A DNA stretch of 64,000 bases from an uncultured Coriobacteriia bacterium (GCA_963726435.1 CAVSCJ010000001.1:18786-82785); one strand, 5' to 3'. Positions 22,700 through 60,825 are shown, numbered from the stretch's first letter. The notes: generated from the sequence alone by a model not told the origin. A program made the numbers and translations.

Positions 22700-22756
22700 A
22701 GTCTGCCACGGGAGGGTGTGCCCGTCAACGAAACAAACGCGGCCGGGCGTGTCCAT
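22700..22756 (-). promoter_or_regulatory. rplM promoter with upstream 21-bp motif
   Basis: ATGGACACGCCCGGCCGCGTT then TTGACG-17nt-CAGACT. Confidence 0.6.
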
Positions 22757-22789
22757 CGGGCGCGTCCGGCCCCACTCGTGCGCGGGTCT

Positions 22790-23569
22790 CTAGAGCCAGC
22801 ACTCCTCGGGGTAGGTCACGTGCCACAGCGTGAGCCCGTGCGGCGGTGCCGTCATCCCCGCCGCCTCGCGGCGGCAGGCCTCGAGCGCAGACGAGATCCA
22901 AGCGGGATCGCGTTTCCCTCTGCCGACGTCCACGAGCGAGCCCACGACGATCCGGACCATCGAATGGAGGAAGGTGCGGCCCGTCACGCGCACGAGCACG
23001 CACTCCTCGCCGAGTTCGCATGACTCGAGTATCTCGATCTCCTCGATGTCGCGGACGGTGCGCCGGTCGCGCGCGCTCCCGCTGACGCAGAAGGCGCGGA
23101 AGTCGTGCTCCCCCGTCAGCTGGGCGGCTCCTGCCCGCATGGCTTCGAGGTCGAGCTCCCGTTTCACCCACCACGCGCGTCCGCGGAGCGCAAGCGGCGG
23201 CGTGGGGCCCGGCACCAGAGTGTAGCGGTACTCGCGAAGCACCGCGTCGTAGCGCGCCGAGAAGCCGTCCGCTGCCGACCGCACCGCGGTCACGACTATG
23301 TCGGGTCCCGCCAAAGCGTTCAGCCCGACCTGCAGGCGGTCGGCCGGCGGGTCTCCCGGCTCGCTGGCGAAGCTCACGACCTGTCCGTGGGCGTGGACCC
23401 CGGCATCCGTCCTGCCCGCACCAACGATCCCGACGTCGCGCCCGAGCACGGTGTGCAGCGCCGACTCCAAAGCGCCTTGGACGGTGACGAGCCCCGGCTG
23501 CCGCGCGAATCCGTGGAACCCCGCGCCGTCGTAGGCGATGGTGAGAGCCGTGCCGCCCCGCCCGGTCAC
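22790..23569 (-). CDS. truA: tRNA pseudouridine(38-40) synthase
   Basis: YDG.GF.GF, GRTDAGVHA, GEHDF, FLHSMVR, APPHGL. Confidence 0.95.
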   Translation of the reverse strand: MTGRGGTALTIAYDGAGFHGFARQPGLVTVQGALESALHTVLGRDVGIVGAGRTDAGVHAHGQVVSFASEPGDPPADRLQVGLNALAGPDIVVTAVRSAADGFSARYDAVLREYRYTLVPGPTPPLALRGRAWWVKRELDLEAMRAGAAQLTGEHDFRAFCVSGSARDRRTVRDIEEIEILESCELGEECVLVRVTGRTFLHSMVRIVVGSLVDVGRGKRDPAWISSALEACRREAAGMTAPPHGLTLWHVTYPEECWL

Positions 23570-24372
23570 AGCATCACCCCGACTGCAACGAGCAAGGCGG
23601 CGGCGATCAGCATGGTGCTCCAATCGGAGGCACGCATCCGCGCCTCCACCAGCCGTGTCCGCCCCTCACTCCCCCGATAGCAGCGGGCTTCCATCGCCGT
23701 GGCCAGCGCGTCGGCCCTCCGGAACAGCTGGAAGAACAGGGGCACCAGAACGGGCGCGTACGCGCGCACACGAGCGATGGGGCCGCCCGCGTCGAAGGAC
23801 GCACCGCGTGCCTGCTGGGCCGTCATGATCTGCTCGGCCTCCTCCGCGGTAGTGGGTATGAAGCGCAGCGCGATGGTCAGGGTCATCGCGAGGTCGCCCA
23901 CGGGCACCCCCACGTACTTCAGCGGCGCCATAGCGCGCTCGATGCCACCCGCCAGTTGCAGCGGGCCGGTTGTGAGGGTCAGAAGCGAGGTACCGGTCAC
24001 CAGGAGCATGATCCGGATAGCGAAGAAGGCGCCCCTTCTCAGCCCTTCGCCGTCGACCGCGAGCGGACCGAGGCGCGCCAGGGCCTCCGCGGGCTGCCAC
24101 CTAAAGGCGTTGGCGGCGATGGTCAGCACCATGATCACGGCGACCGCCTTCAGCCCTCGCGCGACCGCGCTCGGGGGCACGTGGGAGACGATCGTCGCTG
24201 CGGCGACGGCTCCCGCAAGCACGGCCAAGCCGACGAACCCGGGAAGCCGTTCGTCCAGCATGAACAGCGCGAGGGTGAACGCGGCGACCACTCCTATCTT
24301 GGCTGCGGCGTCGAGTCGGTGGAGGGGCGACTCACCGGGAACGTACTGGCCTATCCCTGTGATGCGTCTCAT
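23566..24372 (-). CDS. ecfT: ECF transporter transmembrane component T
   Basis: GQYVPG.S.LHRLD, IALRFIP, AMEARCY. Confidence 0.92.
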   Translation of the reverse strand: MRRITGIGQYVPGESPLHRLDAAAKIGVVAAFTLALFMLDERLPGFVGLAVLAGAVAAATIVSHVPPSAVARGLKAVAVIMVLTIAANAFRWQPAEALARLGPLAVDGEGLRRGAFFAIRIMLLVTGTSLLTLTTGPLQLAGGIERAMAPLKYVGVPVGDLAMTLTIALRFIPTTAEEAEQIMTAQQARGASFDAGGPIARVRAYAPVLVPLFFQLFRRADALATAMEARCYRGSEGRTRLVEARMRASDWSTMLIAAALLVAVGVML

Positions 24373-25226
24373 GCGGGATCGCTCGTCCCGGCTCTCAGCG
24401 CACCTGCCAGCAGGTCGGCAGCGGCCTCCACGTCGAGAGTGAGCGCTCCGGCCGGCGCCCGCCCGCCCGCACGCGCGAGCATGAGCGAACGCGGGACCTC
24501 CGGCGGATCGACGTCGCCGGCGTCGGCGAGCCGGGGGAGCGCTTCCAGCAGTTGCCGCACGTCGCCTTCGAAGACGGGGCGCCCGCCTCGCAGGGCGAGG
24601 ACGCGGTCGGCTCTAGCCAGGAACGTCTCCGCGTCGTGGGTCACGACGAGCACGCCGGCGTCCGCGCGCGCGGCCTCGATCGCAGCGCAGACCGCTTTCT
24701 TCCCGCTCGCGTCCAGACCGGCCGTCGGCTCGTCGAGCAGCAGGTAGCGCGGCCGCATGGCCAGCACGCCGGCTATGGCGGCCCGGCGTGCCTCGCCCCC
24801 CGAGAGCGACCAAGGCTCGCGAGGGCCGAACTCCTCCGGATCGAGCCCGACGGCCCAGAGGGCGGCGCGCGCGTCTCGGAGCGCCTCGTCGGGGGCGCGC
24901 CCGAGGTTCCGCGGACCGAAGGCGCAATCCTCCTCCACGGTGATCGAGAAGAACTGCGACTCGGGTCTCTGGAAGACCAGCCCCACCGCACCTCGCTCCG
25001 AGCCACGGCCGGAGGCGGGACGACCGTCGACCTCGGCGCTGCCCTGCGTCACCGGCAGGAGCCCGGCGGCGGCGCGCAGCAGAGTGGTCTTGCCTGCGCC
25101 TGTCGAGCCCACGAGAAGGACCAGATCCCCCTGCTCGAGTGTCAGTGAGACCCCGGAGAGCGCCACTGATGCCAGCGAGGTGCCGGCGGCGTACTCGCAT
25201 CTGATACCGGTGAGGATCAGTGCCAC
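24369..25226 (-). CDS. ecfA2: ECF transporter ATPase A2
   Basis: GSTGAGKT, FQRPESQ, LSGGE, DEPTAGLD. Confidence 0.9.
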   Translation of the reverse strand: MALILTGIRCEYAAGTSLASVALSGVSLTLEQGDLVLLVGSTGAGKTTLLRAAAGLLPVTQGSAEVDGRPASGRGSERGAVGLVFQRPESQFFSITVEEDCAFGPRNLGRAPDEALRDARAALWAVGLDPEEFGPREPWSLSGGEARRAAIAGVLAMRPRYLLLDEPTAGLDASGKKAVCAAIEAARADAGVLVVTHDAETFLARADRVLALRGGRPVFEGDVRQLLEALPRLADAGDVDPPEVPRSLMLARAGGRAPAGALTLDVEAAADLLAGALRAGTSDPA

Positions 25227-26032
25227 AGCGCGTCCACCACGCCCTCGGCGTCCGCAACGGCCACCGGAACGTCGAACCCCCGCCTGCGCAGCGCCGCGGC
25301 CAGACGCGCAGCGGGAGGCAGTGCGAGTCCTACCCTCTCCATCAGAGACGCATCGCCAAGCAAACCCTCGGGCGGGCCGTCGAACACGACGCCCCCGGCC
25401 GCGAGGCCGATGACACGATCGGCCCGAGTGACGCCCGCCGTGTCGTGAGAGACGATCAGGACGCCGTGACCGTCGTCGTGGGCGAGGCGGCTGGCTATCT
25501 CGAGCACGGACCGGCGACCCACCGCGTCGAGCATCGCGGTCGGCTCGTCGAAGACCAGGTATCGGGGAAGCATGGCGAGCGCGCCGGCCACGGCGAGCCG
25601 CTGCTTCTGCCCCTCGGAGAGCAGGTGCGGCTCCCTGCGCTCGTACCCGTCGAGGGCGACGGCATGAAGGGCGGCGTCGACGCGTTCGCGGATCTCCGCG
25701 CTCGGCAGCCCGACGTTCTCCGGTCCGAACGCGCAATCCTCCTCCACGACCGTGCCGACTATCTGGTCGTCGGGATCCTGGAACACCATCCCAACTAGCG
25801 ACCGCACGGTCCACAGCGATCCGGGATCGGCAGTGTCGAGCCCGTCCACGAGCACCCTGCCCTCTGAAGGCACGAGCAGGCCGTCGCACAGTAGGGCCAG
25901 GGTCGACTTGCCGCTCCCGTTCGCGCCGACTACGGCGACGAGCTCCCCTCGCTCCAGTGTCAGCGAGACGCGGTCGAGCGCGAGCGGCGCGCCGGGGCGA
26001 TATCGGAAGGAAGCGGACTCGAAGACGATCAC
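25217..26032 (-). CDS. ecfA1: ECF transporter ATPase A1
   Basis: GANGSGKST, FQDPDDQ, LSEGQKQR, DEPTAMLD. Confidence 0.9.
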   Translation of the reverse strand: MIVFESASFRYRPGAPLALDRVSLTLERGELVAVVGANGSGKSTLALLCDGLLVPSEGRVLVDGLDTADPGSLWTVRSLVGMVFQDPDDQIVGTVVEEDCAFGPENVGLPSAEIRERVDAALHAVALDGYERREPHLLSEGQKQRLAVAGALAMLPRYLVFDEPTAMLDAVGRRSVLEIASRLAHDDGHGVLIVSHDTAGVTRADRVIGLAAGGVVFDGPPEGLLGDASLMERVGLALPPAARLAAALRRRGFDVPVAVADAEGVVDALWH

Positions 26033-26140
26033 TCGGGCAGCAGGTCCCTTCATGCAGCGGGAGGGCCGGCACAGATGCGCGGCCCTCCCGAGATAGTACC
26101 TTGCCCCGACGCCTGTCACGAGCCGCCGGGCGCGATGCGC

Positions 26141-26533
26141 CTAGTCCACAAGCTCCATGATCACCATCGGAGCGTTGTCACCCTTGCGCGGACCGAGCTT
26201 AAGGATGCGCGTGTAGCCGCCCTCACGCTCCGCGAAGCGCGGCGCGATGTCGTGGATCACGCGGTAGGACACTTCAAGGTCCTGCTTGCCCGTGGCCGGG
26301 TTCACGACCTTCTTCTCCCCGCCGAGTGCTGCGATGATCAGGCGGCGCGAGTGCACGTCGCCGCGCTTGCCCCAGGTGATGATCCGGTCGACGAGCCCCC
26401 GGACCTCCTTGGCGCGCGTCTCGGTCGTCTTGATGCGCTCGTTCACGAGCAGCGCAAGGGCCAGACTGCGCAGGATGGCCTTGGTGTGGCTCGCGTCGCT
26501 ACCGAGCGCACGCCCCTTCTTCAGGTGTCGCAT
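26141..26533 (-). CDS. rplQ: 50S ribosomal protein L17
   Basis: MRH, IKTT..AKE, GGYTRI, RKGDNA. Confidence 0.97.
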   Translation of the reverse strand: MRHLKKGRALGSDASHTKAILRSLALALLVNERIKTTETRAKEVRGLVDRIITWGKRGDVHSRRLIIAALGGEKKVVNPATGKQDLEVSYRVIHDIAPRFAEREGGYTRILKLGPRKGDNAPMVIMELVD

Positions 26534-26552
26534 GTGCTTTCCGTCTCTCCTT

Positions 26553-27491
26553 CTAGCCTTTGAGCCCCAAGCCCATCTGCTGAAGCTTGTCCTTCACTTC
26601 TTCGATGGACTTGGCGCCGAAGTTTCGGATGTTGAGAAGATCGGCCTCAGTGCACTCGGCCAGCTGGCCGATCGTGTTCACGCCTTGGCGCTTGAGGCAG
26701 TTGAACGAGCGCACGGTCAGGTCGAGGTCCTCGATAGGAGTGTCGAGTGGACCGGCCGCGTCGGCGGGCGTCTCGTCGAACGTGATCCCGAGCTCCGCCC
26801 CGCTCTGGTTCTCGAAGAGCATCATGTGGTCGTTGATGATCTTGGCGGCAGCCCTGACGGCCTCCCCCGGGTCGACCGCCCCGTTGGTCTCCAGCTCGAC
26901 GATGAGCTTGTCGTAGTCCGTGCGCTGGCCGACGCGGGTGTTCTCCACGAGGTAGGTGCAGCGGACCACCGGGCTGAACAGCGAGTCGATCGTGATGACC
27001 CCCAGCGGGTCGTCGCTGCGCTTGTTGCGGTCGGCCGACACGTAGCCCCGGCCGACCTCGATGCGCATGGACATCTCGAGTTTGGCGCCCTTGTCCAGGG
27101 TCGCGATGACCGCCTCCGGGTTGACGAGCTCGAACTCGGACGGGATGGCAAGATCGGCTCCGGTCACAGTCTTCGGGCCGGTGGCCGAGAGCGTGGCGAC
27201 CGCATCCGAGATGTCGTCCGGGCCGCCGTTGGAGCGGAACACCAGCTGCTTCACGTTCAGCACGACGTCCGTGACGTCCTCGCGGACGCCCTTGATCGCG
27301 GTGAACTCGTGGTGAACGCCTTCGATGCGGATCGACGTCGCGGCCGCGCCTTGGAGCGACGAGAGCAACACCCGGCGCATGCAGTTGCCCAGGGTGTAGC
27401 CGAAACCACGCTCGAGCGGCTCCGCGACGTACCTCGCGGTGCGCGGGTCGATCTGCACGTCCGAGACGGTCGGCTTCATGAAACCTGTCAT
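26553..27491 (-). CDS. rpoA: RNA polymerase alpha subunit
   Basis: EPLERGFGYTLGN, LTVRSFNCLKR, NFGAKS. Confidence 0.98.
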   Translation of the reverse strand: MTGFMKPTVSDVQIDPRTARYVAEPLERGFGYTLGNCMRRVLLSSLQGAAATSIRIEGVHHEFTAIKGVREDVTDVVLNVKQLVFRSNGGPDDISDAVATLSATGPKTVTGADLAIPSEFELVNPEAVIATLDKGAKLEMSMRIEVGRGYVSADRNKRSDDPLGVITIDSLFSPVVRCTYLVENTRVGQRTDYDKLIVELETNGAVDPGEAVRAAAKIINDHMMLFENQSGAELGITFDETPADAAGPLDTPIEDLDLTVRSFNCLKRQGVNTIGQLAECTEADLLNIRNFGAKSIEEVKDKLQQMGLGLKG

Positions 27492-27529
27492 CTACCTGCC
27501 TCCTTGGCGGGATGAGAGAAATGCGCCGG

Positions 27530-28156
27530 TTACTTCGAGTAGAGCTCGACGATGAGCTGCTCACGCACCGGCAGATCGATCTGGTCGCGGGTCGGCAGCG
27601 CCAGGACCTTGCCCTGGAGCTTCTCGACGTCCACTTGAAGCCAAGCGGGGACCTCGATCCGGGCCGACGAGATGATCGCGGCCTTGACCACGGACATCTC
27701 CTTCGCCTTGGGGGCCACCGATACCGTGTCGCCAGGGCGTACCCGGTACGAGGGGACGTTCACCCTCTTGTCGTTGACCATGATGTGGTTGTGGCGGACG
27801 GTCTGCCTCGCCTCATCACGCGACGCTGCGAAGCCGAGACGGTAGACGACGTTGTCGAGCCTGCTCTCCAGCAGGCGCAGCAGGTTCTCGCCCGACTTGC
27901 CCTGCTGGCGACTGGCGAGCTCGTAGTACGTCCTGAACTGCTTCTCCAAGACGCCGTAGGAGCGCTTGGCCTTCTGCTTCTCACGCAGCTGCACGCGGTA
28001 CTCGCTGTCGCGGGGGCGCTTGCGGCCGGCCTGGCCGGGCGGGAACGGGCGGCGCTCGACGCCGCACTTGTCGCTGTAGCAGCGATCGCCCTTCAGGAAC
28101 AGTTTGATGCCCTCACGACGGCAGAGGCGGCAGTCCGCGCCTGTGTAACGTGCCAA
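27530..28156 (-). CDS. rpsD: 30S ribosomal protein S4
   Basis: [29 protein letters not shown]. Confidence 0.98.
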
Positions 28157-28180
28157 CTTGGGATCCCTCCTAGAAGAGGA

Positions 28181-28588
28181 CTAGACGCGGCGGCGCTTGC
28201 GCGGCCGGCAGCCGTTGTGTGGTATGGGCGTGCAGTCCTGGATGCTTGCGATCTCGAGCCCCGTGGCCTGCAGAGAACGGATGGCGGTCTCGCGGCCTGA
28301 ACCGGGGCCCTTCACGAACACGGACACCTTGCGCATGCCGTGCTCCATGGCGTCCTTCGCGCACTGCTCGGCCGCCAGTTGCGCGGCGAACGGCGTCGAC
28401 TTGCGGGAGCCCTTGAACCCGACCTGACCCGCGCTGCGCCACGTGATGACGTTGCCGGCCGGGTCGGTGATCGAGATGATCGTGTTGTTGAACGTGGACT
28501 TGATGTGAGCCTGACCCACGGCGATGTTCTTGCGCTCGCTGCGCTTGACGCGGGTCTTTGCTGCCTTCTTCTTCGGGGCGGCTGCCAT
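28181..28588 (-). CDS. rpsK: 30S ribosomal protein S11
   Basis: [21 protein letters not shown]. Confidence 0.98.
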
Positions 28589-28590
28589 CG

Positions 28591-28968
28591 CTACTTACCT
28601 GCCTTCTTCTTTGCGCCGATCTGGCGACGCGGGCCCTTGCGGGTGCGCGCGTTGGTATGGGTCCGCTGTCCGCGGACCGGCAGGCCCCTGCGATGGCGAA
28701 GGCCGCGGTAGCAGCCGATCTCCATGAGTCGCTTGATGTTCTGGCTGACCTCGCGACGAAGGTCGCCTTCGACCTTCAGGCTGCGATCGATGTACTCGCG
28801 GAGGCGGACGACCTCCTCTTCGGTCAGGTTGCGTACGCGCGTGTCCGGGTTGATGCCCGTCTCACGCAGGATCTTCTGGCTCGTCGTGAGACCGATCCCG
28901 AAGATGTAAGTGAGGCCGATCTCCACGCGCTTCTCGCGCGGAAGGTCGACGCCGGTTATGCGTGCCAA
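28591..28968 (-). CDS. rpsM: 30S ribosomal protein S13
   Basis: [26 protein letters not shown]. Confidence 0.98.
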
Positions 28969-28993
28969 GGTTCTATCTCCTCCGGGGTCGGGA

Positions 28994-29107
28994 CTAGCCC
29001 TGCCGCTGCTTGTGGCGCGGGTTCTCGCAGATCACGAGCACGCGTCCGTGGCGGCGGATGATCTTGCACTTCTCGCAGATCCTCTTGACAGAGGGTCGTA
29101 CCTTCAT
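28994..29107 (-). CDS. rpmJ: 50S ribosomal protein L36
   Basis: Manual translation [37 protein letters not shown]. Confidence 0.97.
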
Positions 29108-29184
29108 CTGCCGTTCCCTTCACAAGTCGTTCGCTCTATGTTCACACCCAGCCGCAGGTGCTTCTTTGCCATGGAGTGCAAACA

Positions 29185-29205
29185 AACGCCGCCGGGCGTG
29201 TCCTT
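29185..29205 (-). promoter_or_regulatory. Copy of the 21-bp motif upstream of rpmJ
   Basis: AAGGACACGCCCGGCGGCGTT; no convincing -35/-10 pair adjacent. Confidence 0.45.
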
Positions 29206-29240
29206 GCTTCCTCCCCGGTGGCGGGTCGAGCGGGTCATAG

Positions 29241-29462
29241 CTACTTGTAGCGATAGGTGATTCGGCCCCGCGTCAGATCGTAGGGAGACAGTTCGACGAC
29301 CACCTTGTCGCCGGGCAGGATGCGGATGTAGTGCATCCTCATCTTGCCCGAGATGTGAGCAAGCACTTTGTGGCCGTTCTCCAGCTCAACGCGGAACATG
29401 GCGTTGGGGAGAGGTTCGGCTACGGTGCCTTCCATCTCTATGGCGTCGCCGTTCTTTGCCAA
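29241..29462 (-). CDS. infA: Translation initiation factor IF-1
   Basis: [23 protein letters not shown]; TTG start. Confidence 0.97.
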
Positions 29463-29545
29463 ACAAGGTCTCCTTCTACAGGCGGGACGTGAAGCCGCAA
29501 ACGGGGAGTATACCAACACGCGCTCTCATCGTCCAGCCGGAGCGG

Positions 29546-30292
<747 letters not shown>

Positions 30293-30300
30293 GGGCTCGC

Positions 30301-30951
30301 TCAGGCCTTCGCGCGCAGGATGGCCGTGACATCAGCGTACACGTCGTCTGCCGGACGGTTGCCGTCGACGGTCCTCAGCAGGCCTTGGGCCTCGTAGTAG
30401 GGCACCAGCGCGGAGGTGACGGCATCGTAGTCGTCGAGGCGCTTGGTGGCCGCCGCAACCGTGTCGTCGTCGCGCTGATAGACCTCGCTGCCGCAGACGT
30501 CGCAGACGTTCTCAGTCGCAGGCATCTCGCCCAGAACGTTGTAGATCTTGCCGCACTTACGGCACTGACGGCGCGCGGTGAGGCGCCTCATCAGCACGTC
30601 GCGCGGCACCTCGATCGCGATGACCGCGTCGAGGTGAGTGCCCATCGATCCCAGCGCCGCGTCGAGCGACTCGGCTTGCGGCAGTGTGCGAGGGAAGCCG
30701 TCGAGCATGAAGCCTTTGGCGCAGTCGGCCTGCTGCAGACGATCCTTGACCATGCGGATCACCACGTCGTCGGGAACGAGCTGCCCGGCGTCCATATAGC
30801 GCTTGGCCTCCAGCCCGAGAGGAGTCATCTCCGAGACGTTCTTGCGGAAGATGTCGCCGGTCGAGATATGCGTCAGCGAGAAGTCCTCAACCAGCCGGGC
30901 GGCCTGCGTCCCCTTGCCGGCGCCGGCTGCGCCCAGAAGCACGATGTTCAT
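30301..30951 (-). CDS. adk: Adenylate kinase (zinc lid)
   Basis: GAAGAGKGTQ, LDGFPR, CRKC..CDVC, QRDDD. Confidence 0.96.
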   Translation of the reverse strand: MNIVLLGAAGAGKGTQAARLVEDFSLTHISTGDIFRKNVSEMTPLGLEAKRYMDAGQLVPDDVVIRMVKDRLQQADCAKGFMLDGFPRTLPQAESLDAALGSMGTHLDAVIAIEVPRDVLMRRLTARRQCRKCGKIYNVLGEMPATENVCDVCGSEVYQRDDDTVAAATKRLDDYDAVTSALVPYYEAQGLLRTVDGNRPADDVYADVTAILRAKA

Positions 30952-31048
30952 GCCCACCCTCCTCGTACTCTGATCTCCGATGTCACGCCGGGCGGGACCC
31001 GGAAGCCCCCGAGTCCCGCCCCGCGGTGGTGCCGAGCCCAATCTCTCC

Positions 31049-32347
<1,299 letters not shown>

Positions 32348-32349
32348 GG

Positions 32350-32790: not shown

Positions 32791-32885
32791 GTTCGTTCTC
32801 CTTCTTCTTCGCCACCGGCCCTCGTGCGTGCGGGACCCGGTCGCCGGCCGCTCGCCGCCGGCGGACTGGACTCGAGCTTGTAGCG

Positions 32886-33080: not shown

Positions 33081-33082
33081 AG

Positions 33083-33592: not shown

Positions 33593-33609
33593 TGTTGAGA
33601 TCGTCCTCT

Positions 33610-37803: not shown

Positions 37804-37805
37804 CT

Positions 37806-40108: not shown

Positions 40109-40273
40109 TCCCTACTCCTCTCTCAAAGCCCGATGGCCGGGTCTGCTTGGCACTCTCAGCCACGTCTTCCCACGTGGCTCACAGACCTCGACGCCGGACT
40201 TAACACGGTGCCGGGCGGCTCCATCCCTGAGAACGAAGAACCGGCATCGTCGGCCGCTGGTGGGGCGGCTACC

Positions 40274-42359: not shown

Positions 42360-43562
<1,203 letters not shown>

Positions 43563-46625: not shown

Positions 46626-46718
46626 CGCTGTCTCCTTTACCGCCTTCGTTTCCGCCCTCATGGGCAGGCCATGTCGCGGCGCGCGCGGACGCGCTACCGT
46701 CCTAGGCCGCAAGGTGGC

Positions 46719-46774
46719 ACTCTAGCAAGGTCCCGAGGTCGTGTCAATCAGTCAACGCCCCCGGGCGTGTCCAT
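46719..46774 (-). promoter_or_regulatory. str operon promoter with upstream 21-bp motif
   Basis: ATGGACACGCCCGGGGGCGTT then TTGACA-17nt-TAGAGT with TGn extended -10. Confidence 0.75.
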
Positions 46775-46871: not shown

Positions 46872-51146
<4,275 letters not shown>

Positions 51147-51237
51147 CGTAGCTCCTCCTCATTTCAAGCCCGGGTGTTCCTCGAGAGCGGCGTCTGCCGG
51201 GCAGGGCAGTCCGGGCCGGTCCTTGCGCGGGCGGTCC

Positions 51238-54200
51238 CTACTCGGTCGAATCCGTGCCGATCGACTCGGCGTCGACGACCGAGAAGGCGTCGTCGAGCGA
51301 TATGTCCAAGTCCTCGTCGTCCAGTTCGGGCAGTTCGTCGAGAGCGCTCTCGTCCCTGGAAGCGCGAGAGTCTCCCTCCCCGATGGCGCCCAGATCGAGC
51401 CCCAGTTCCTCGGCGGTCCTGAAGATGTCCTCGTCCTCTTCCTTCAGTTCGATCTCCACGCCGGTCTCGGAGATGATCTCGACGTCCAGACACAGGGACT
51501 GCATCTCCTTGACGAGCACCTTGAATGACTCTGGGATGCCCGGCTCGGGTATGTTCTCGCCCTTGACGATGGCCTCGTACGCCTTGACGCGGCCGACCAC
51601 GTCGTCGGACTTGATAGTCAGGATCTCCTGGAGCACGTAGGCGGCGCCGTAGGCGTACAGGGCCCACACTTCCATCTCGCCGAACCGCTGTCCGCCGAAC
51701 TGCGCCTTGCCGCCCAAAGGCTGCTGAGTGATAAGCGAGTACGGCCCGGTCGACCGGGCATGGATCTTGTCGTCGACCAGGTGCAGCAGTTTCAGGATGT
51801 AGATCTGGCCCACCGTCACGTCGGCGCGGAACTGCTCCCCGGTGCGGCCGTCGTAGAGGCGCGACTTCCCCGTGCGCTCGACGCTGGGGATCATCGCCGG
51901 CTCCACGAGCTTGCCGTAGCGGGACTCGGCGCGCAGGCGCGCATTGCGGTCCGACGCTTCCAGCACGTCCTCGATCTCGGCCTCGCGGGCGCCGTCGAAG
52001 ACCGGCGTCGCACAGTAGATGCCGCCGTCGACGGGTTCCTTCTGCTTGGGGTCATCGGACCAACCGACGAAGGCCGCCCAGCCAAGGTGCGTCTCGAGCA
52101 GCTGCCCGATGTTCATGCGGGACGGGACGCCGAGAGGGTTCAAGATGATGTCGACGGGACGTCCGTCGGCCAGGAAGGGCATGTCCTCGATCGGGAGGAT
52201 CTTGGAGATGACTCCCTTGTTGCCGTGCCGGCCCGCGAGCTTGTCGCCCTCGTTGATCTTGCGCTTCTGGGCCACGTACACGCGAACCAACTCGTTGACG
52301 CCCGGAGAGAGGTCGTCGCCGTTGTCGCGCGAGAACTGCTGGACGGAGATGACGCGGCCGGTCTCACCGTGCGGGACCTTCAACGACGTGTCGCGCACCT
52401 CGCGCGCCTTCTCACCGAAGATCGCCCGAAGCAGGCGCTCCTCTGCGGTGAGCTCGGTCTCGCCCTTGGGGGTGACCTTGCCGACGAGCACGTCGCCCGG
52501 GAATACCTCTGCGCCGACGCGGATGATGCCGTCGTCGTCGAGGTTGGCCAGCACGTCTTCGCCGACGTTCGGGATCTCTCGGGTGATCTCCTCGGGGCCG
52601 AGCTTGGTGTCGCGAGCCTCGACCTCGTACTCCTCGATGTGGATGGAGGTGAGGACGTCTTCCTTGACGATGCGCTCCGAGAGGATGATGGCGTCCTCGT
52701 AGTTGTAGCCCTCCCACGGCATGAACGCGACGAGGAGGTTGGTGCCGAGCGCGAGCTCGCCGAGCTCGGTCGAGGGACCGTCGGCGATCACGTCGTCGAT
52801 CTCGACCTTCTGGCCGATCGCGACCACGGGGCGGTGATTGATGCAGGTGCCCTGGTTCGAGCGCATGAACTTCGGCAGGTGATACTCGTCCAGCGCGCCG
52901 TCGTCGCCCCGGATAGCGACCAGGTGGCTGTCCACGCGCTCGACGATGCCGGAGCGGCGGGCGCGCACGATCTCGCCGGTGTCGACCACCGAACGGTGCT
53001 CCATTCCCGTGCCGATCAGCGGCGCTTTCGGGCGCAGCAGAGGCACGGCCTGCCTCTGCATGTTGGAGCCCATCAGCGCGCGGTTCGCGTCGTCGTGCTC
53101 GAGGAACGGGATGAGCGCCGTTGCGACGGAGACCATCTGGCGCGGGGAGACGTCCATGTACTCGACGTCTGCGGGGTGGACCTCCTCGGGGTCGCCGCCC
53201 TTGCGCATGCGGCACAGGACCGTGGGGCGCTCGAACTTGCCCGTCTTCGGGTCGAAGGTCTCGTTCGCCTGCGCGATGATGTAGCGGTCTTCTTGGTCGG
53301 CGGTCAGGTACTCGATGTCGTCCGTGACCTTGCCCTTGACCACCTTGCGGTACGGAGTCTCGATGAACCCGTACGGGTTGATGCGCGCGAAGGTCGCGAG
53401 CGAGCCGATCAGCCCGATGTTAGGGCCTTCAGGAGTCTCGATCGGGCACATCCGCCCATAGTGGGACGGGTGCACGTCGCGGACCTCGAAACCTGCACGC
53501 TCGCGCGACAGGCCGCCAGGGCCCAGCGCGGAGAGGCGCCGCTTGTGAGTGAGCCCGGCCAGCGGGTTGGTCTGGTCCATGAACTGCGAGAGCTGGCTCG
53601 AGCCGAAGAACTCCTTGATCGCGGCCACGATCGGCCGGATGTTGATGAGCGACTGCGGCGTGATCTGCTCGACGTCCTGGGTTGTCATGCGCTCGCGCAC
53701 GACTCGCTCCATGCGGGCGAGGCCGATCCGGAACTGGTTCTGGATCAGCTCGCCCACCGAGCGGACGCGCCTGTTGCCGAAATGGTCGATGTCGTCGACG
53801 GTGTAGCCGTCGCGAGACTCCCACAGGTTCACCAGATAGCGCACGGCCGCGAGGACGTCCTCGCTCGTTAGCGTCGACTGGTCGATCGGCAGGTCGAGGC
53901 CGAGCTTGGTGTTCACCTTGTAGCGACCGACCTTCGCGAGGTCGTAGCGCTGGGCGTTGAAGAACAGACCGTCCAGGAGCGACCGGGCGGACTCGACCGT
54001 CGGGGGCTCACCCGGACGAAGGCGCTTGTAGATCTCGACCAGCGCCTCTTCGCGGTTCTCGGTGTAGTCCTTCTCCAGTGTGCGCTTGATGCACTCGGAC
54101 TCGCCCATGAGCTCGAGGATCTCCTCGCGCGTCTCGGCGATACCGAGCGCCTTCAGCAGAACGGTGACCGGCTGCTTGCGTTTGCGGTCGATGCGCACGG

Positions 54201-54753
54201 ACACGACGTCCTTGCGGTCCGTCTCCAGCTCGAGCCACGCGCCGCGGGCTGGGATGACCTTGGTGGTGAAGATCGCCTTGTCCGAGGTCTTGTCCCGCTC
54301 CTCCGAGTAGTAGACGCCCGGAGAGCGCACGAGTTGCGAGACCACGACGCGCTCGGTCCCGTTGATGACGAAGGTGCCGCGATCGGTCATGAGCGGGAAG
54401 TCGCCCATGAACACCTGCTGCTCTTTGACCTCGCCGGTCTCGCGGTTCAGGAAGGCGACGTCGACGAAGAGCGGCGCCTGGTAGGACATGTCTTTCTCTT
54501 TGCACTCCTCCACGGAGTACTTGGGATCCCCGAACTCGTGCGCGCCGAACTCCACCGCGAGATTCCCGGTGAAGTCTTCGATCGGTGAGATGTCCTGAAA
54601 GGTCTCGTTCAGACCTTCGTCGAGGAACCATTTGAAGCTGTCACGCTGAAGGGCGATGAGACTGGGAACGTCGAGCACTTCAGGGATCTTCGCAAATGTG
54701 CGGCGCTGGCGAAGACCAGCCTGGACAACGCGGGATTCGGCTCCACGGGGCAC
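51238..54753 (-). CDS. rpoB: RNA polymerase beta subunit
   Basis: [29 protein letters not shown]. Confidence 0.99.
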
Positions 54754-54806
54754 CAGGTGATTCCTCCTCCGGTCGTGGGGCTTAGCTACATACGCGGCAA
54801 ACTGTC

Positions 54807-54835
54807 AGTCTAGGCAAACGGCGTGCCAGGGTCAA
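54807..54835 (-). promoter_or_regulatory. Putative rpoBC promoter
   Basis: TTGACC-17nt-TAGACT. Confidence 0.65.
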
Positions 54836-54918
54836 GGCCCTTTTTGCGGCGTCCCGCAGCCCCGATGCGCCGCGAATGCCGCGCGTTCCGGACCCCTGCC
54901 GGCTGGGGCGAGAAGACG

Positions 54919-54956
54919 CCGGCAGGGCCGGGAGCTCGAGGCCCCGACCCTGCCGG
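54919..54956 (-). terminator. Hairpin after rplL
   Basis: CCGGCAGGG...CCCTGCCGG stem followed by a short pyrimidine run on the minus strand. Confidence 0.55.
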
Positions 54957-54976
54957 GATGGATCGCCGCGAGAGTG

Positions 54977-55360
54977 CTACTTGACCTCGACGACGGCGCC
55001 TGCCTCTTCGAGCTTGCCCTTGGCCTTGTCGGCCTCGTCCTTGTTCACGCCTTGCAGAACGGAGGCGGGAGCCGACTCGACCAGGTCCTTCGCTTCCTTC
55101 AGTCCGAGACCCGGGACGATCTCGCGGACGACCTTGATGACCGAGATCTTGTTCGGGCCGACCTCGGCGAGGACGACGTCGAAGGTGGTCTTCTCCTCCT
55201 CCGGCGCGGCTTCGCCGGCGGTGGCGCCTGCGGCGGCCACGGCGACGGGAGCGGCAGCGGAAACACCGAAGATCTCCTCGAATTCCTTGACGAGCTCCGC
55301 CAGCTGGAGTGCCGGCATCTCCTTGATAGCCTCGATGATCTCATCCTTGCTTACAGCCAT
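54977..55360 (-). CDS. rplL: 50S ribosomal protein L7/L12
   Basis: [18 protein letters not shown]. Confidence 0.98.
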
Positions 55361-55451
55361 GGTGTCCAGTTCTCCTTTGCTCTGATCTTCATTCGGCCGG
55401 CCCAGCGCTCCCGCGCGACCCGCGCCTCACGGTCTTCTTCTCACGCGCTGG

Positions 55452-55973
55452 CTAGGCCGCGGCCTTCTGGTCCGCGATCGCCTTCAGGACGCGGGCGAAC
55501 GCGCCCGCGGGGCCGGCCAGAACGCGAACGAACCCGGACATCGGGTTCTGTATCGTGCCGAGCAGCTTCGCGATGAGCTGATCACGCGACGGGAGCGCCG
55601 CCAGTCTCCGCACGCCGTCGGCCGTCGTGATGGTGCTGTCGACGAAGCCGCCCTTGAGCTCGAGCGCCTTGTGCGCCTTCGCGAAGTCCACGAGCGCCTT
55701 CGCCGGGGCGACCGGGTCGCCGAAGCTGAACAGGAACGCCGTCGGGCCCTCGAGCAGATCGCCGAGGTCCGGCAGAGCGAGTTCGCGCATCGCTATCTGA
55801 GCAAGAGTGTTCTTGTACACGCGCAACTCGGCGTCGGTGTCTCGCAGGGAGACGCGGAGCGCTTGGATCTCCTTGACGGTCAGGCCGCGGTAGTCGGCCA
55901 GGATGACCGCCGAGGACCGTGCGAACCGGTCCTTGATCTCGCCTACCTCTTCTATCTTGTGGGCATTGGGCAT
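55452..55973 (-). CDS. rplJ: 50S ribosomal protein L10
   Basis: DYRGLTV, KNTL, LAALPSR. Confidence 0.97.
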   Translation of the reverse strand: MPNAHKIEEVGEIKDRFARSSAVILADYRGLTVKEIQALRVSLRDTDAELRVYKNTLAQIAMRELALPDLGDLLEGPTAFLFSFGDPVAPAKALVDFAKAHKALELKGGFVDSTITTADGVRRLAALPSRDQLIAKLLGTIQNPMSGFVRVLAGPAGAFARVLKAIADQKAAA

Positions 55974-56184
55974 GGTTGTCCTTCTTCCCTCCCTTCGTCC
56001 GCGTACCACCGCACGGTTCGTCCCCGCAAGAGCTGGGACGGTGGCGGCGGCAACGCCGGTCTCCGGGATCGAGATGGCCCCGGAAGACGACGTGGCCTCC
56101 GCCGAAGGATCTCGGCGGAGGCCACGGACGATTCAGTCTCGTCGCGCGTCCTTTCCGGCCGGTGGCCGGGAAGGACGCTCATGG

Positions 56185-56262
56185 ACATCCACCTCGGCAG
56201 GCGGGACTCTATCGTCCCCTTGGGCCCCGCTTCTCAGCGCAGGCACCGGCTGTCTTCGGCAG
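56185..56262 (-). ncRNA. Ribosomal protein L10 leader
   Basis: CCGAAGACAGCCGG...CCTGCCGAGG hallmark segments upstream of rplJ. Confidence 0.75.
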
Positions 56263-56357
56263 CGTCGGTCGGTATCGCGTGATGTCAAATGGTGCGGAGC
56301 GTACCCTACCACCCTGGAGGTGCCGGGGGCAAGCGCGCCCGCCACCGCCGCTGTCGA

Positions 56358-57062
56358 CTAGTCCTCGAGGAGGTTTCGGATGCGGGTCGGATCGACCTTG
56401 ATGCCGGGCCCCATCGTGGTGCAGATCGTGATCGTCTTGATGTACCTGCCCTTGGCGGACGCGGGTTTCGCGCGCAGGATCTCGTCGAGAACGGCGCGGT
56501 AGTTCTCGACCAGCTTGTCGGTGTCGAAGGACACCTTGCCGATCCCCACGTGCGCGATGCCGAACTTGTCGGCGCGGTACTCGACCTTGCCTGCCTTCAG
56601 CTCCTTGACGACGCGACCGACGTCCATGGTCACGGTGCCCAGCTTCGGGTTGGGCATCAAGCCGCGGGTCCCGAGGATCTTCCCCAGACGGCCGACCTTG
56701 GCCATCATGTCCGGGGTCGCTATGGTGGCGTCGAAGTCGAGAAAGCCGCCGTTGATCCTCTCGATGAGGTCGTCGTCGCCGACGATGTCGGCGCCGGCCG
56801 CCTCGGCCTCGCGTGCCTTCTCGCCGGAGGCGAACACGGCGACGCGGACCGTCTTGCCTGTCCCGTTCGGGAGCGAGACCGAGCCGCGGACCTGCTGGTC
56901 CGCCTGACGGGTATCGACGCCGAGACGGAAGTGGGCCTCGACGGTCTCGTCGAACTTCGCGGTCGACAGCTCCTGGCTCAGCCCTATCGCTGCGAGCGGA
57001 GTATGGATCGTCTCCTTGTCGACCTTCGCGCGGACCTCGGCGAGCCTCTTTCCGATCTTCAT
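56358..57062 (-). CDS. rplA: 50S ribosomal protein L1
   Basis: KFDETVE, GLMPNPK.GT, TMGPG. Confidence 0.98.
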
Positions 57063-57075
57063 CTGTGGAACCTCC

Positions 57076-57108
57076 TGTGGTCGACGGGCCCTTCTCGGAC
57101 CCTCCCAC
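57076..57108 (-). promoter_or_regulatory. Putative L1-binding leader before rplA
   Basis: GTGGGAGGGTCC-GAGAA-GGGCCCGTCGACCAC next to the SD; resembles the L1 site fold. Confidence 0.5.
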
Positions 57109-57156
57109 TACCTCTGCTGCGCGCTCGGGCGGATGCGCGGGCGCGTTCTTGCCGCG

Positions 57157-57582
57157 CTACTCCTCGACGGTGATGCCCATCGAGCGGGCGGTTCCCTCGA
57201 TGATCCTCATGCCGGCCTCTATGTCGTTCGCGTTGAGGTCGACCAGCTTGGTCTGGGCGATCTCACGGACCTGGTCCCGGGTCACCGACGCGACCTTGTC
57301 GCGGTTCGGCGCCCCCGAGCCCTTCTCCACGCCCGCGGCGGCCTTGAGCAGGACGGCCGCGGGAGGGGTCTTCGTTATGAACGTGAACGAGCGGTCCTCG
57401 TAGACGGTGATCTCGACCGGGGTGATGGTGCCGAGATTCGACTGAGTCTGCGCGTTGAACGCCTGGCAGAACTGCATGATGTTGACCTGATGCTGGCCGA
57501 GCGCGGGCCCGACCGGAGGGGCCGGGTTCGCCTGTCCGGCGGGGATCTGCAGCTTGATGAATCCTACGACCTTCTTGGCCAT
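57157..57582 (-). CDS. rplK: 50S ribosomal protein L11
   Basis: [24 protein letters not shown]. Confidence 0.98.
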
Positions 57583-57729
57583 GATGTCTGTACGTCCGAT
57601 CCTTCTCGTCGGCGCCGCGCTCGTGCGCGCCGCCTGCTCTCCCGCTCTACGACACGACGCCTACCCTGCCTGAGAAGCCCGGTACGGGGGCATCACTCCC
57701 GCCGGCGGGCCGAGACGCGTCGCAGATGT

Positions 57730-58263
57730 CTACAACTTGGCGACCTGATCGAATCCGAGTTCCACGGGCGTCTCGCGCCCGAAGATCGAGACCATGACCT
57801 TGATCTTGCCCTGGTCGGGGTTGACTTCCGCGACGGTGCCGTCGAACTCCGCCAGCGGCCCGCTGGTCACCTTGACGGCCATCCCCTCGTGGAACTCGGT
57901 GAACGACTTCGGCTTGACGCCCTGGACCCCGGTGGAGCCCTTGATCCGCTTCACCTCTTCGCGTGACAGGCCGACCGGCTTGCCTTGGCTGCCCACGAAA
58001 CCGGTGACCCCGGGGGTGTTGCGCACGACATACCAGGAGTCGTCGTCGAGCTGCATCTCGACGAGTATGTAGCCCGGGAAGACCTTCTTGTCCGAGGTGA
58101 CCTTCTTGCCACCCTGCTTGATCTCGGTGATCGTCTCTTTCGGTATGAACACGTCGAAGATCTTGCCGGACATCTGCATCGACTCGATGCGGTGCTCGAG
58201 GTTCGCTTTGACCTTGTTCTCATATCCGGAGTAGGTGTGGATGACGTACCAGCGCTTCGCCAT
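57730..58263 (-). CDS. nusG: Transcription factor NusG
   Basis: WYVIHTYSGYE, FPGY, IFGRETPVEL. Confidence 0.97.
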   Translation of the reverse strand: MAKRWYVIHTYSGYENKVKANLEHRIESMQMSGKIFDVFIPKETITEIKQGGKKVTSDKKVFPGYILVEMQLDDDSWYVVRNTPGVTGFVGSQGKPVGLSREEVKRIKGSTGVQGVKPKSFTEFHEGMAVKVTSGPLAEFDGTVAEVNPDQGKIKVMVSIFGRETPVELGFDQVAKL

Positions 58264-58268
58264 CTTCC

Positions 58269-58499
58269 CTAGCCCCCGACCTGTGCGAGGAATCGGACAA
58301 CGGCGCTCGACACGTAGTCGAGACCGAAGATCAACACGATGAAGATGGCGAGCGTGACCACAACGATCCAGGAGGAGTTGACGATCTCGGTGCGCGAGGG
58401 CCATACGACCCTGCGCATCTCGGCCTTGACGTCGTTGAAGTAGCGAACGAGTCGCTTCAGCAGTCCGGGCTTCGCTGCCTTGACGCTTGTCTGGGCCAT
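58269..58499 (-). CDS. secE: Preprotein translocase SecE
   Basis: EMRRVVWPSR plus one TM helix. Confidence 0.95.
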   Translation of the reverse strand: MAQTSVKAAKPGLLKRLVRYFNDVKAEMRRVVWPSRTEIVNSSWIVVVTLAIFIVLIFGLDYVSSAVVRFLAQVGG

Positions 58500-58601
58500 C
58501 TACTCGGACCGTCCTCTCGGGTCCCCTGCCATCGGGCGGGGATGGATGCTCATGCTACCGGGCCGAAGTCTGCAACGTGCGTGGCCCGGGATGGTCTCGT
58601 G

Positions 58602-58677
58602 TGGCAGGCCAGGAGGGACTCGAACCCCCAACATCCGGTTTTGGAGACCGGCGCTCTACCATTGGAGCTACTGGCCT
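58602..58677 (-). tRNA. tRNA-Trp(CCA)
   Basis: 76-nt cloverleaf, anticodon CCA, encoded CCA end. Confidence 0.97.
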
Positions 58678-58711
58678 ATACACCGTTTCTCTCAGGAGAC
58701 GCAGGCGATGT

Positions 58712-58861
58712 CTACCTGGTCTCCTTGTGGACCGTGTGGCAGCGGCACCACTTGCAGTACTTCTTGTACTCGATGCGCTCCGGGTTGTTCTGCTTGTTCT
58801 TCGTCGTCGTGTAGTTGCGGCGCTTGCACTCCGTGCAGGCGAGCGTGACGAGCGTCCTCAT
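58712..58861 (-). CDS. rpmG: 50S ribosomal protein L33 (C+)
   Basis: Manual translation [17 protein letters not shown]...[16 protein letters not shown]. Confidence 0.96.
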
Positions 58862-58937
58862 GGTATCGCTTCCTCCGGATGGACCCTGCCAGTACTCCCG
58901 CGGACGCGCATGCGGGGCGGGCCGGGGACGGTAGGGT

Positions 58938-58967
58938 AATCTACCACCCGCTCTCGAAGGGTGTCAA
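58938..58967 (-). promoter_or_regulatory. Putative rpmG promoter
   Basis: TTGACA-18nt-TAGATT with TGn extension. Confidence 0.65.
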
Positions 58968-58986
58968 ACCGCTCGACGAGCAGGCG

Positions 58987-59024
58987 AGCGGGACCCGGCC
59001 TCGTTTGTCGGGCCGGGTCCCGCT
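58987..59024 (-). terminator. Hairpin after second tuf
   Basis: 14-bp perfect stem AGCGGGACCCGGCC/GGCCGGGTCCCGCT; no U tract. Confidence 0.55.
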
Positions 59025-59050
59025 ACCTCATTTGCGTATGTGAAGGCGTC

Positions 59051-60238
<1,188 letters not shown>

Positions 60239-60387
60239 TTCTTCCTCCTTCTTCCTTCAAAGACGCGGCGCGGATCCGATCGGACTTGGCTCCGCGCTCA
60301 TTGCCCGTCGACGCCCCGTGCTTATCGATCCTGCTTGCTGCTGGAACGTGTCTACGACCGGCCGTCGGGCTCGGGCGTGGATGACCA

Positions 60388-60465
60388 TGGTAGCGGTGGC
60401 TGGACTCGAACCAGCGACTCCGCGGGTATGAACCGCGTGCTCTGAACCAACTGAGCTACACCGCC
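60388..60465 (-). tRNA. tRNA-Met(CAT), elongator type
   Basis: Cloverleaf, anticodon CAT, paired 1-72, CCA end. Confidence 0.93.
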
Positions 60466-60539
60466 GTGTACATGTGACCGGCGTGCGGCGCGGAGAGCTG
60501 GACTCCCCGCCTCGGCCGCACGATCCGGTGAGCCGTGAG

Positions 60540-60615
60540 TGGAGCCCACAATCGGACTCGAACCGATGACCTCTTCCTTACCAAGGAAGTGCTCTGCCGA
60601 CTGAGCTATGTGGGC
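60540..60615 (-). tRNA. tRNA-Thr(GGT)
   Basis: 76-nt cloverleaf, anticodon GGT. Confidence 0.96.
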
Positions 60616-60618
60616 GTG

Positions 60619-60703
60619 TGGTGGGGGCGCCAGGATTCGAACCTGGGTAGGCGTAGCCAACGGGTTTACAGCCCGTCCCCTTTAGCCACTCGGGCACACC
60701 CCC
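60619..60703 (-). tRNA. tRNA-Tyr(GTA)
   Basis: 85-nt cloverleaf with long variable arm, anticodon GTA. Confidence 0.96.
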
Positions 60704-60767
60704 ATACAAACAAAAAGCCGTATTCGCGATGTCAAGGTCGGCCACCACCCTGCGAAAAGGCGTGGAA

Positions 60768-60825
60768 ATACTACAGGCCCGTCGCAACCACTGTCAACGG
60801 CGGCAACGCCACCGGGCGTGCCCAT
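60768..60825 (-). promoter_or_regulatory. tRNA-tuf operon promoter with upstream 21-bp motif
   Basis: ATGGGCACGCCCGGTGGCGTT then TTGACA-18nt-TAGTAT. Confidence 0.7.

Follow-up and report, generated by a model that had tools for sequence, protein, structure and literature searches.

A candidate WhiA box upstream of translation operons in the class Coriobacteriia

Four near-identical boxes, located upstream of operons for the translation machinery in a 64,000-nucleotide stretch of DNA from an uncultured Coriobacteriia bacterium, are probably binding sites of WhiA, a known transcription factor of Gram-positive bacteria, placed upstream of translation-operon promoters throughout the class. We give this assignment a probability of about 0.8. 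WhiA binding at these sites, the positions of the transcription starts and the direction of the effect are predicted from DNA sequence. The stretch, called the window in the following, corresponds to C1:18786-82785 of a genome of 2,005,544 bases in seven contigs (67% G+C, 91.9% complete, contamination 2.13%). The motif as an operator and the control of ribosomal protein (r-protein) operons by WhiA are already published. A class-wide 22-bp box in one orientation, with a promoter-specific spacing upstream of the -35 box, a compact regulon of several operons and a WhiB-independent WhiA in an actinobacterial class may be new.

Four boxes and their promoters

A preliminary description of the window had listed four 21-mers on the minus strand, at 22736-22756, 29185-29205, 46754-46774 and 60805-60825. 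All four, with the consensus GGRCACGCCCGGnnGCGTT, were recovered exactly at these positions and in the gene contexts described, and all are intergenic and in one orientation as had been claimed. The pattern GGRCACGCCCGGNNGCGTT matches the window exactly at four places, each of them on the minus strand (22736-22754, 29185-29203, 46754-46772 and 60805-60823). The full boxes and one degenerate relative are as follows.

22735..22756 (17-mer core 22737-22753), minus strand: WhiA-type box 1 (ATG-GACACGCCCGG-CC-GCGT-TT), upstream of rplM-rpsI, with the rplM start at 22618
29184..29205, minus strand: WhiA-type box 2 (AAG-GACACGCCCGG-CG-GCGT-TT), between infA and rpmJ, no adjacent -35 or -10 box
46753..46774, minus strand: WhiA-type box 3 (ATG-GACACGCCCGG-GG-GCGT-TG), between the end of rpoC and rpsL
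60804..60825, minus strand: WhiA-type box 4 (ATG-GGCACGCCCGG-TG-GCGT-TG), between tRNA-Thr(tgt) and tRNA-Tyr, tRNA-Thr, tRNA-Met and the second tuf
40205..40221, minus strand: degenerate box relic GAGCCGCCCGGCACCGT, between rplW and rplB, three mismatches, core disrupted

Box 2 heads rpmJ-rpsM-rpsK-rpsD-rpoA-rplQ, and downstream of box 3 are rpsL-rpsG-fusA-tuf-rpsJ and then further genes. Position 2 of the core is G and not A in box 4. The relic between rplW and rplB is probably weak or inactive in this genome. With up to three mismatches allowed, GGRCACGCCCGGNNGCGTT was found eight times in the window, compared to 1.62 +/- 1.36 times in dinucleotide-preserving shuffles, and eight was reached in 0 of 100 shuffles. 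The 21-mer consensus gave 23 matches in the whole genome at up to four mismatches. The four window sites were the only ones with zero or one mismatch, no match had two mismatches, and two had three, one of these being the DTPGHV codons of fusA.

Promoters were sought beside the boxes by a consensus scan and by eye.

46747-46719, minus strand: promoter-like site TTGACA-17-TAGAGT of rpsL, consensus scan, 10/12 consensus matches
60797-60768, minus strand: promoter-like site TTGACA-18-TAGTAT of the tRNA-Tyr operon, consensus scan, 10/12 consensus matches
22700..22728, minus strand: putative rplM promoter read by eye, TTGACG (22728-22723), 17-nt spacer, CAGACT (22705-22700)

The palindrome ACGCC-N4-GGCGT is present as described earlier, with one mismatch at rplM. 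Both it and the box end 8 nt before TTGAC[AG] at rplM, 7 nt at rpsL and 8 nt at the tRNA operon, in agreement with the 7-8 nt proposed for three cases. The rpsL and tRNA operon promoters were called by the scan; the rplM promoter, TTGACG-17-CAGACT, was not called by the scan and is read by eye only. Its layout is repeated in relatives with better -10 boxes (TATAGT, TAAAGT, TAGAAT). No promoter-like site was obtained by the scan in the rpmJ region. With the -35 box set at -35 to -30, the motif spans about -39 to -62 at the three window sites.

Other promoter candidates lack the motif, as the preliminary description had noted. Neither a match with up to three mismatches nor an 8-mer core was found at the promoter-like sites at 54835-54807 (before rpoB) and 58967-58938, or before groES. 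The enrichment that had been expected at rRNA promoters was not seen: no box lies in the first 700 nt upstream of the C6 copy of the 16S gene. A second 16S copy (G000:C5:3887-6087) has an AT-rich upstream region with three promoters of the TTGACA...TAAAAT type, unlike the rest of the 67% G+C genome; the end of C5 bearing this copy may be mis-binned or chimeric. Sixteen RNA sequencing runs that were found each contained only 5-7% of the sampled words, all in the form of contigs, which cannot show transcript starts.

Conservation of the box and extent of the regulon

Every one of the 41 genomes from the same order has matches with at most one mismatch. These are grouped on a single strand, at distances resembling those of the window (e.g. 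G020:C3). A scan of one genome per species with GACACGCCCGGNNGCGT-N(3-12)-TTGAC gave at least 117 loci. Among the matches listed, the great majority were from Coriobacteriia, including Eggerthellaceae, Adlercreutzia, Gordonibacter, Slackia, Paraeggerthella, Lancefieldella, Parvibacter, Rubneribacter and Ellagibacter, and the scattered cases in Micromonospora, Nocardia, proteobacteria and others were without promoter context. In a record assigned to Candidatus Limnocylindrales (Chloroflexota; L047), a consensus box is followed by TTGACC...TATAGT and then by the apparent start of a tRNA gene. This is either a real occurrence outside the class or a binning error.

Classification of the fetched sites by tblastn with the proteins of the window resulted in 109 distinct sites before translation genes, 82 of them from the GACACGCCCGGNNGCGT scan, all among the matches listed. 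Of these, 41 are before rpsL, 28 before rplM, 17 before tuf behind tRNAs, five before rpmJ and two before rplU. A further 16 show the tRNA-tuf promoter type alone, with flanks too short to reach tuf, and bring the orthologues of box 4 to 33. ARAGORN found tRNA-Tyr at 11 of 12 loci of the tRNA-tuf promoter type taken from both groups. The orthologous boxes lie 117-141 nt before rplM (28 distinct sites among the matches listed) and 96-127 nt before rpmJ (five sites). A consensus box, GATACACCCGGACGCGT, orthologous to the relic in the window, is located 104-142 nt upstream of rplB in two gut-type genomes (L165, L171).

The orientation is identical in all 109 sites, and the full motif reads R-T-R-GAYACGCCCGG-NN-GCGT-K-K, ending 3-10 nt before the -35 box. 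Most of the sites were gathered with patterns that fix positions in the core and the 3' half. In the core G1, A4, C5, C7 and C8 never vary. The second position is A in 106 sites, the third a pyrimidine in every site, and the sixth G in 107 sites and A in the other two. Within the 3' half, where the collecting patterns fixed the positions, 9-11 and 15-17 show no variation, and 106/109 sites have G at position 14. The 5' flank has R at -3 (106/109), T at -2 (77/109) and R at -1 (108/109), and the unconstrained 3' flank has K at +18 (108/109) and at +19 (106/109). The distance from GCGT to the -35 box, preset to 3-12 by the search pattern for 82 of the sites, is 5 nt at rpsL (35/41), 8 nt at the tRNA operon (30/33) and 3-9 nt, most often 7, at rplM. 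The palindrome is incidental and is not the conserved unit. Its fifth pair (C8-N13, which needs G at N13) is kept in only 53/109 sites.

The G11 form of the box, which is the type seen in the window, has exact matches in 21 of the 33 genomes sampled from the class, compared to 21 of 368 from other classes. A search for the variant GACACRCCCGANNGCG confirmed the homology between classes: among 138 genomes of other actinobacterial classes 41 contain it, and among 13 of this class two do, compared to 10 genomes with a reversed-pattern control. Both tallies include the unpublished genomes G274, G345 and G041, and every site described individually comes from other genomes. The 24 GACACRCCCGANNGCG loci fetched comprised seven before rpsJ (87-175 nt), three before rpsL (74-114 nt) and 14 without a translation gene. 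Boxes of the Actinomycetes type before rpsJ and rpsL (L196-L206) continue as CCCGACC-GCG(T/G)G-GGTCGG, an inverted repeat of 6-7 bp that overlaps the 3' half; this extension is missing in Coriobacteriia.

The 17-mer has 58 matches in the genome at up to two mismatches. Boxes with two mismatches in a promoter-like context were observed before rplU (C6:498056), rpsT (C6:479641) and, as a candidate, rpsA (C6:646038). The open reading frame caller, based on G+C at third codon positions, covers about 63-76% of each contig, and its intergenic and coding labels are a rough guide. The rplU box is a consensus box in two relatives (L022, L023). At rpsT, nine of the 30 loci, each belonging to the family of the window, keep the box with 0-2 mismatches at a distance of 119-126 nt from the start codon; in other families rpsT has a degenerate box that abuts the -10 box. 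The rpsA frame (G000:C6:644654-645826) turns into Arg/Pro-rich nonsense after about 160 residues, probably through an assembly frameshift. A box-like sequence, GAAACACCCGGACGCGT, was also seen 54 nt before groES in one relative (L178; G472:C1:353009-353025), a single case and possibly chance. The earlier proposal of a coordinated set of translation operons is supported, and the rplU and rpsT boxes, the rpsA candidate and rplB in gut relatives extend it beyond the window. The predicted regulon is compact, with four to eight translation operons, the tRNA-tuf operon included.

WhiA as the candidate factor and the alternatives

The motif had not been recognised as a described operator. However, its core GAYACGCC is the published WhiA core, and the 17-mer nearly equals the WhiA sites upstream of rpsJ in Streptomyces and Mycobacterium. 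WhiA of M. gallisepticum binds GAYACRCY by its helix-turn-helix, as seen by electrophoretic mobility shift assay and microscale thermophoresis, and an auxiliary motif by its endonuclease-like domain (Fisunov et al. 2024, PMC11701221). The same study found that most bacteria retaining whiA also have the motif conserved upstream of their rpsJ operon, and its Supplementary Table 3 gives, among others, the rpsJ-operon sites GCGACACGCCCGACCGCGTGGGTCGG for S. coelicolor, GCGACACGCCCGAGCGCGGGG for M. tuberculosis and CTGACACACCCGGCCGCTTTGCC for S. aureus. The S. coelicolor site of that table, GACACGCCCGACCGCGTGG, shares 16/17 positions of the Coriobacteriia 17-mer and the KK flank. For M. tuberculosis, chromatin immunoprecipitation sequencing (ChIP-seq) and in-vitro DNA affinity purification sequencing (IDAP-seq) both give GACACGCC as the WhiA motif; the regulon is enriched in ribosome genes, and rpsF and rplB are activated (PMC13473873). 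In S. venezuelae the WhiA ChIP targets include infA, efp, rpsH, rpsJ and rpsA, all of them lower in a whiA mutant (PMC3781837). The boxes of the window have the asymmetric core (GACAC within GAYACRCY), an auxiliary part downstream of it (CGG-NN-GCGT-KK) and the association with translation operons seen in published WhiA regulons. Their asymmetric shape of 17-22 bp fits a monomeric bipartite binder. No account of WhiA sites in Coriobacteriia was found in the literature search, the supplementary PDFs of the key papers being outside it, and a literature search by the sequence ACACGCCCGG gave only papers that are, by title and start of abstract, on unrelated subjects.

The factor itself is present in the genome.

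L150:1432-2415, minus strand: whiA, 328 aa, between a CofD/YvcK-like gene and the gene gap, the sole WhiA of the genome

This protein has all three Pfam domains of the family, WhiA_N, LAGLIDADG_WhiA and HTH_WhiA, and matches S. venezuelae WhiA (8DY7, 8DY9) with E = 1.5e-41. In S. venezuelae WhiA the residues R266, K287, R293 and R295 contact GACAC or the DNA backbone (Lilic et al. 2023, PMC10243135). By alignment they correspond to R270, K291, R297 and R299 in the present WhiA, and L274 corresponds to I278. Among the backbone contacts of the N-terminal domain, R177 and R185 correspond to R180 and K188, and R174 and R181 are not conserved. Among 81 genomes of the class with a completeness of 90% or more, 80 have a detected HTH_WhiA and one a detected member of the WhiB family (PF02467), the latter search having a positive control in C. 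glutamicum. A PF02467 search of this 91.9% complete genome gave no match. The WhiB partner of the WhiA/WhiB dual-activator promoters, of the type known from Streptomyces and Mycobacterium, was thus not found here.

Several observations weigh against the assignment to WhiA. The 8-mer core occurs at chance frequency, with 217 copies in the genome compared to about 231 expected from base composition and 13 in the window compared to 11.0 +/- 3.3, so that specificity must come from the extended box and from where it lies, and on these the assignment is based. In box 4 the second core position is G, and M. gallisepticum WhiA is sensitive to single substitutions in the core (PMC11701221). One genome of the class, G434 (100% complete, 70 contigs), has no detectable HTH_WhiA yet contains one exact box. 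In-vivo binding of WhiA in Streptomyces depends on WhiB (PMC10243135), and with WhiB in only 1/81 genomes the Streptomyces mechanism cannot simply be transferred. The surroundings of whiA, searched up to 1.5 kb away, contain no core or box in this genome and no consistent one in 12 relatives, and nothing here points to an autoregulation like that of Streptomyces. Finally, the sites before rpmJ and rplB have no -35 box, and one mechanism may therefore not fit all sites.

The proposed mechanism is as follows. WhiA is monomeric and combines a degenerate LAGLIDADG (homing-endonuclease-like) scaffold with a helix-turn-helix at the C-terminus that resembles sigma region 4. The helix-turn-helix would read the asymmetric core (RTR)GAYAC(GCC), and the linker helix and the endonuclease-like domain would lie over the downstream half CGG-NN-GCGT-KK, which matches in position the published auxiliary motif, starting 7 nt after the core. 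The presumed target promoters are those of rpsL(-S10-spc), rplM-rpsI and tRNA-Tyr/Thr/Met-tuf, with promoter-less internal sites before rpmJ and, in some genomes, rplB. WhiA could in this way tie the output of these operons to one signal, possibly the energy (ATP) status as in Mycoplasma WhiA. In a class without WhiB, WhiA must act without the WhiB bridge of Streptomyces and Mycobacterium, and it would act alone on the sigma-A holoenzyme at these promoters. In Streptomyces the association of WhiA with its partners requires DNA. Between the box and the -35 box 3-10 bp remain. As to the direction of the effect, published WhiA proteins both activate and repress (PMC11701221, PMC13473873, PMC3781837). 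Our analysis leans, only slightly, to stimulation over repression because of the position of the box upstream of the -35 box and the Streptomyces and Mycobacterium data. The promoters are near consensus and may not need help. A further-reaching proposal is offered tentatively, as doubtful at present: in Coriobacteriia WhiA alone could serve as a master regulator dedicated to the translation apparatus, acting through the unusually long and information-rich 22-bp box at about -40 to -62 of consensus sigma-A promoters of r-protein, tRNA and EF-Tu operons, by direct contact with RNA polymerase. Such a mode of action would be independent of WhiB. To couple ribosome synthesis to the energy state could even be the ancestral job of WhiA, with the cell-division and sporulation regulons of Actinomycetes derived later.

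Another DNA-binding protein specific to Coriobacteriia could occupy the box, with the likeness to WhiA sites being coincidental or reflecting competition for one site. The box in G434, a genome without detectable whiA, would be accommodated by such a protein, and so would the 3' half CGG-NN-GCGT, which is far more conserved than the described auxiliary motifs of WhiA, bound only weakly by the endonuclease-like domain (PMC11701221). This reading is unlikely, as the 17-mer is nearly the same at WhiA ChIP peaks and conserved WhiA sites of Streptomyces and Mycobacterium, and a class-specific factor leaves the phylum-wide conservation and the S. aureus site GACACACCCGGCCGC unexplained. The preliminary description had suggested an activator site or a GC-rich analogue of an UP element. 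The former survives as a protein-binding cis-element upstream of the -35 box at three of four sites. In the latter, the alpha subunit of RNA polymerase would contact the box directly through its C-terminal domain and no dedicated factor would be involved. Three of the window sites do lie at about -40 to -62, the classical UP position, before highly expressed genes. UP elements are A/T-rich and are read in the minor groove. In contrast, the box is GC-rich (at most 4-5 A/T of 17), information-rich and asymmetric. The same box is found without a -35 box before rpmJ and rplB and follows the transcription start in Mollicutes, and it is missing at the rRNA promoter candidates of this genome and at the strong promoter-like sites 58967 and 54835. 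The UP-element analogue fails because of its composition and the promoter-less sites, and is very improbable.

A role in RNA is still less probable. The box would then be a small terminator, attenuator or processing signal in read-through from infA, rpoC, truA or tRNA-Thr, for which the palindrome ACGC(C)-N-(G)GCGT could provide a hairpin of 4-5 bp. A weak terminator-like call at rpmJ (29199-29186, five pairs, then TTGTTTG) points in this direction, but the T-tail is not kept in relatives, and terminator-like calls are not enriched (5 compared to 2.5 +/- 1.6). The arms never vary and so show no covariation, and the fifth pair is not kept; the hairpin fails for these reasons, and at three sites the box is moreover upstream of the predicted promoter. 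No Rfam match was obtained at the motif sites at gathering score over the whole window, or over the rplM and rpsL leader regions at E <=1. A dispersed repeat of the repetitive extragenic palindromic (REP) type, or a chance similarity, has nothing in its favour beyond the GC-richness of the genome and is the least probable, close to nil. The preliminary description had named many copies of a REP-like repeat as grounds for giving up a regulatory site. The whole-genome scan gave only four copies in 2.0 Mb at up to one mismatch, all on one strand, and the motif is therefore not a REP-like repeat. The copies share one orientation relative to the downstream gene and occupy orthologous promoter positions, also in the 41/41 genomes of the order and in named Coriobacteriia records, and chance is further opposed by the lack of two-mismatch copies and by the shuffles. 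Sigma-54, extracytoplasmic function (ECF) sigma factor and overlapping-promoter readings were also rejected: GG-N10-GC does not fit, GGAC and CGTT are about 11 nt apart, and no -10 box is found at 17 nt from the TGGACA-like part. Binding of WhiA remains the preferred reading.

Neighbouring features, significance and comparison with known systems

Further conserved elements were observed near the boxes. Between the rpmJ box and the start codon lies the conserved element CCTGCGGCTGGG(T/C)GTG-nAG-ATAGA (window 29108-29185; also L002, L006, L007, L017 and L020). Neither a recognisable -35 or -10 box nor, at gathering score over the window, a match in Rfam was found for it, and it could be an r-protein leader or an unusual promoter. 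Leaders conserved throughout the class precede rplM (GGGTTCGTT..GCCCCGTGAA, window 22619-22699) and rpsL (CCACCTTG(C/T)G(A/G)C, window 46626-46718) and are candidates for autoregulatory r-protein leaders. A glmS ribozyme precedes glmS (19989-20161, minus strand, 92.9 bits). The run rplM-rpsI-glmM-glmS therefore starts with a putative WhiA box and contains a ribozyme switch. Two full-length tuf genes are present, at 42360-43562 in the str operon and at 59051-60238 behind tRNA-Tyr/Thr/Met, and their first 30 residues are identical. Directly before tRNA-tuf-(tRNA-Trp)-secE-nusG-rplK, at 61052-63922 on the minus strand, are cysS, an rlmB-like methyltransferase gene, a YacP/NYN-domain gene (61862-62506) and a gene for a small sigma factor (61052-61813) with Sigma70_r2 and r4_2 domains. 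This region mirrors the B. subtilis order, cysS...yacO-yacP-sigH-rpmG-secE-nusG. Because of the mirrored order, the small sigma factor may be the positional counterpart of SigH.

Coriobacteriia include the common human-gut genera Eggerthella, Adlercreutzia, Gordonibacter and Slackia. The class is a very clean case, with few near-identical boxes, all at translation operons, and no WhiB. Cultured strains make it possible to test WhiA regulation without WhiB, the control of ribosome synthesis as a conserved core function, and the role of the 3' half of the box. The box can also be used as a simple annotation marker for the main r-protein and tRNA-tuf promoters of Coriobacteriia.

The elements of growth-rate control at rRNA, tRNA and r-protein promoters of E. 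coli, namely the UP element and Fis sites, are functional analogues of the box. Their sequences and proteins are unrelated, and the rRNA promoter candidates here have no box.

The closest published site is that before rpsJ described by Fisunov et al. (PMC11701221). The core GAYACRCY is shared, here as GAYACGCC, and both sites head a large r-protein operon. A conserved part follows 7 nt after the core in both, GTTGT in M. gallisepticum and GT-K-K here, and the Actinomycetes entries of Supplementary Table 3 agree with the Coriobacteriia 17-mer at 16/17 positions. One operon, rpsJ, is reported there, whereas four or more are found here, including the tRNA-tuf operon. The box here stands before rpsL because rpsJ is fused behind str. 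None of the Coriobacteriia names searched for occurs in the text and three text supplements of PMC11701221, and rplM, rpsL and tRNA are absent from its main text, its PDF supplement being outside the search. In Mollicutes the site is located at +22 to +40 downstream of the start and WhiA represses, the repression by Mycoplasma WhiA being relieved by ATP (PMC11701221), whereas the present boxes lie upstream of the -35 box.

The 8-bp motif GACACGCC of M. tuberculosis WhiA/WhiB2 (NAR Mol Med 2026, PMC13473873) is the same as here. That regulon is likewise rich in ribosome genes, with 17 genes including the rpsJ operon, and with rplB and rpsF activated. However, its 149 peaks extend to genes of cell division and DNA replication and to PE/PPE genes, and WhiB2 binds together with WhiA, whereas the extended box is confined here to translation genes and no WhiB-like gene was found. 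At the sepX promoter of S. venezuelae (PMC10243135; 8DY7, 8DY9), GACAC precedes the -35 box and is read on the non-template strand, as it is here, and the DNase footprint of WhiA is 17 nt, compared to a box of 17-22 bp. The C-terminal domain of WhiA reads GACAC there as sigma region 4 reads TTGACA, and the DNA-contacting residues are conserved in the present protein. The linker and the N-terminal domain contact DNA just downstream, and WhiB links the N-terminal domain to sigma region 4, in contrast to Coriobacteriia, which are without WhiB (1/81). The sepX-type targets are cell-division genes (PMC10243135), whereas the predicted targets in Coriobacteriia are translation operons.

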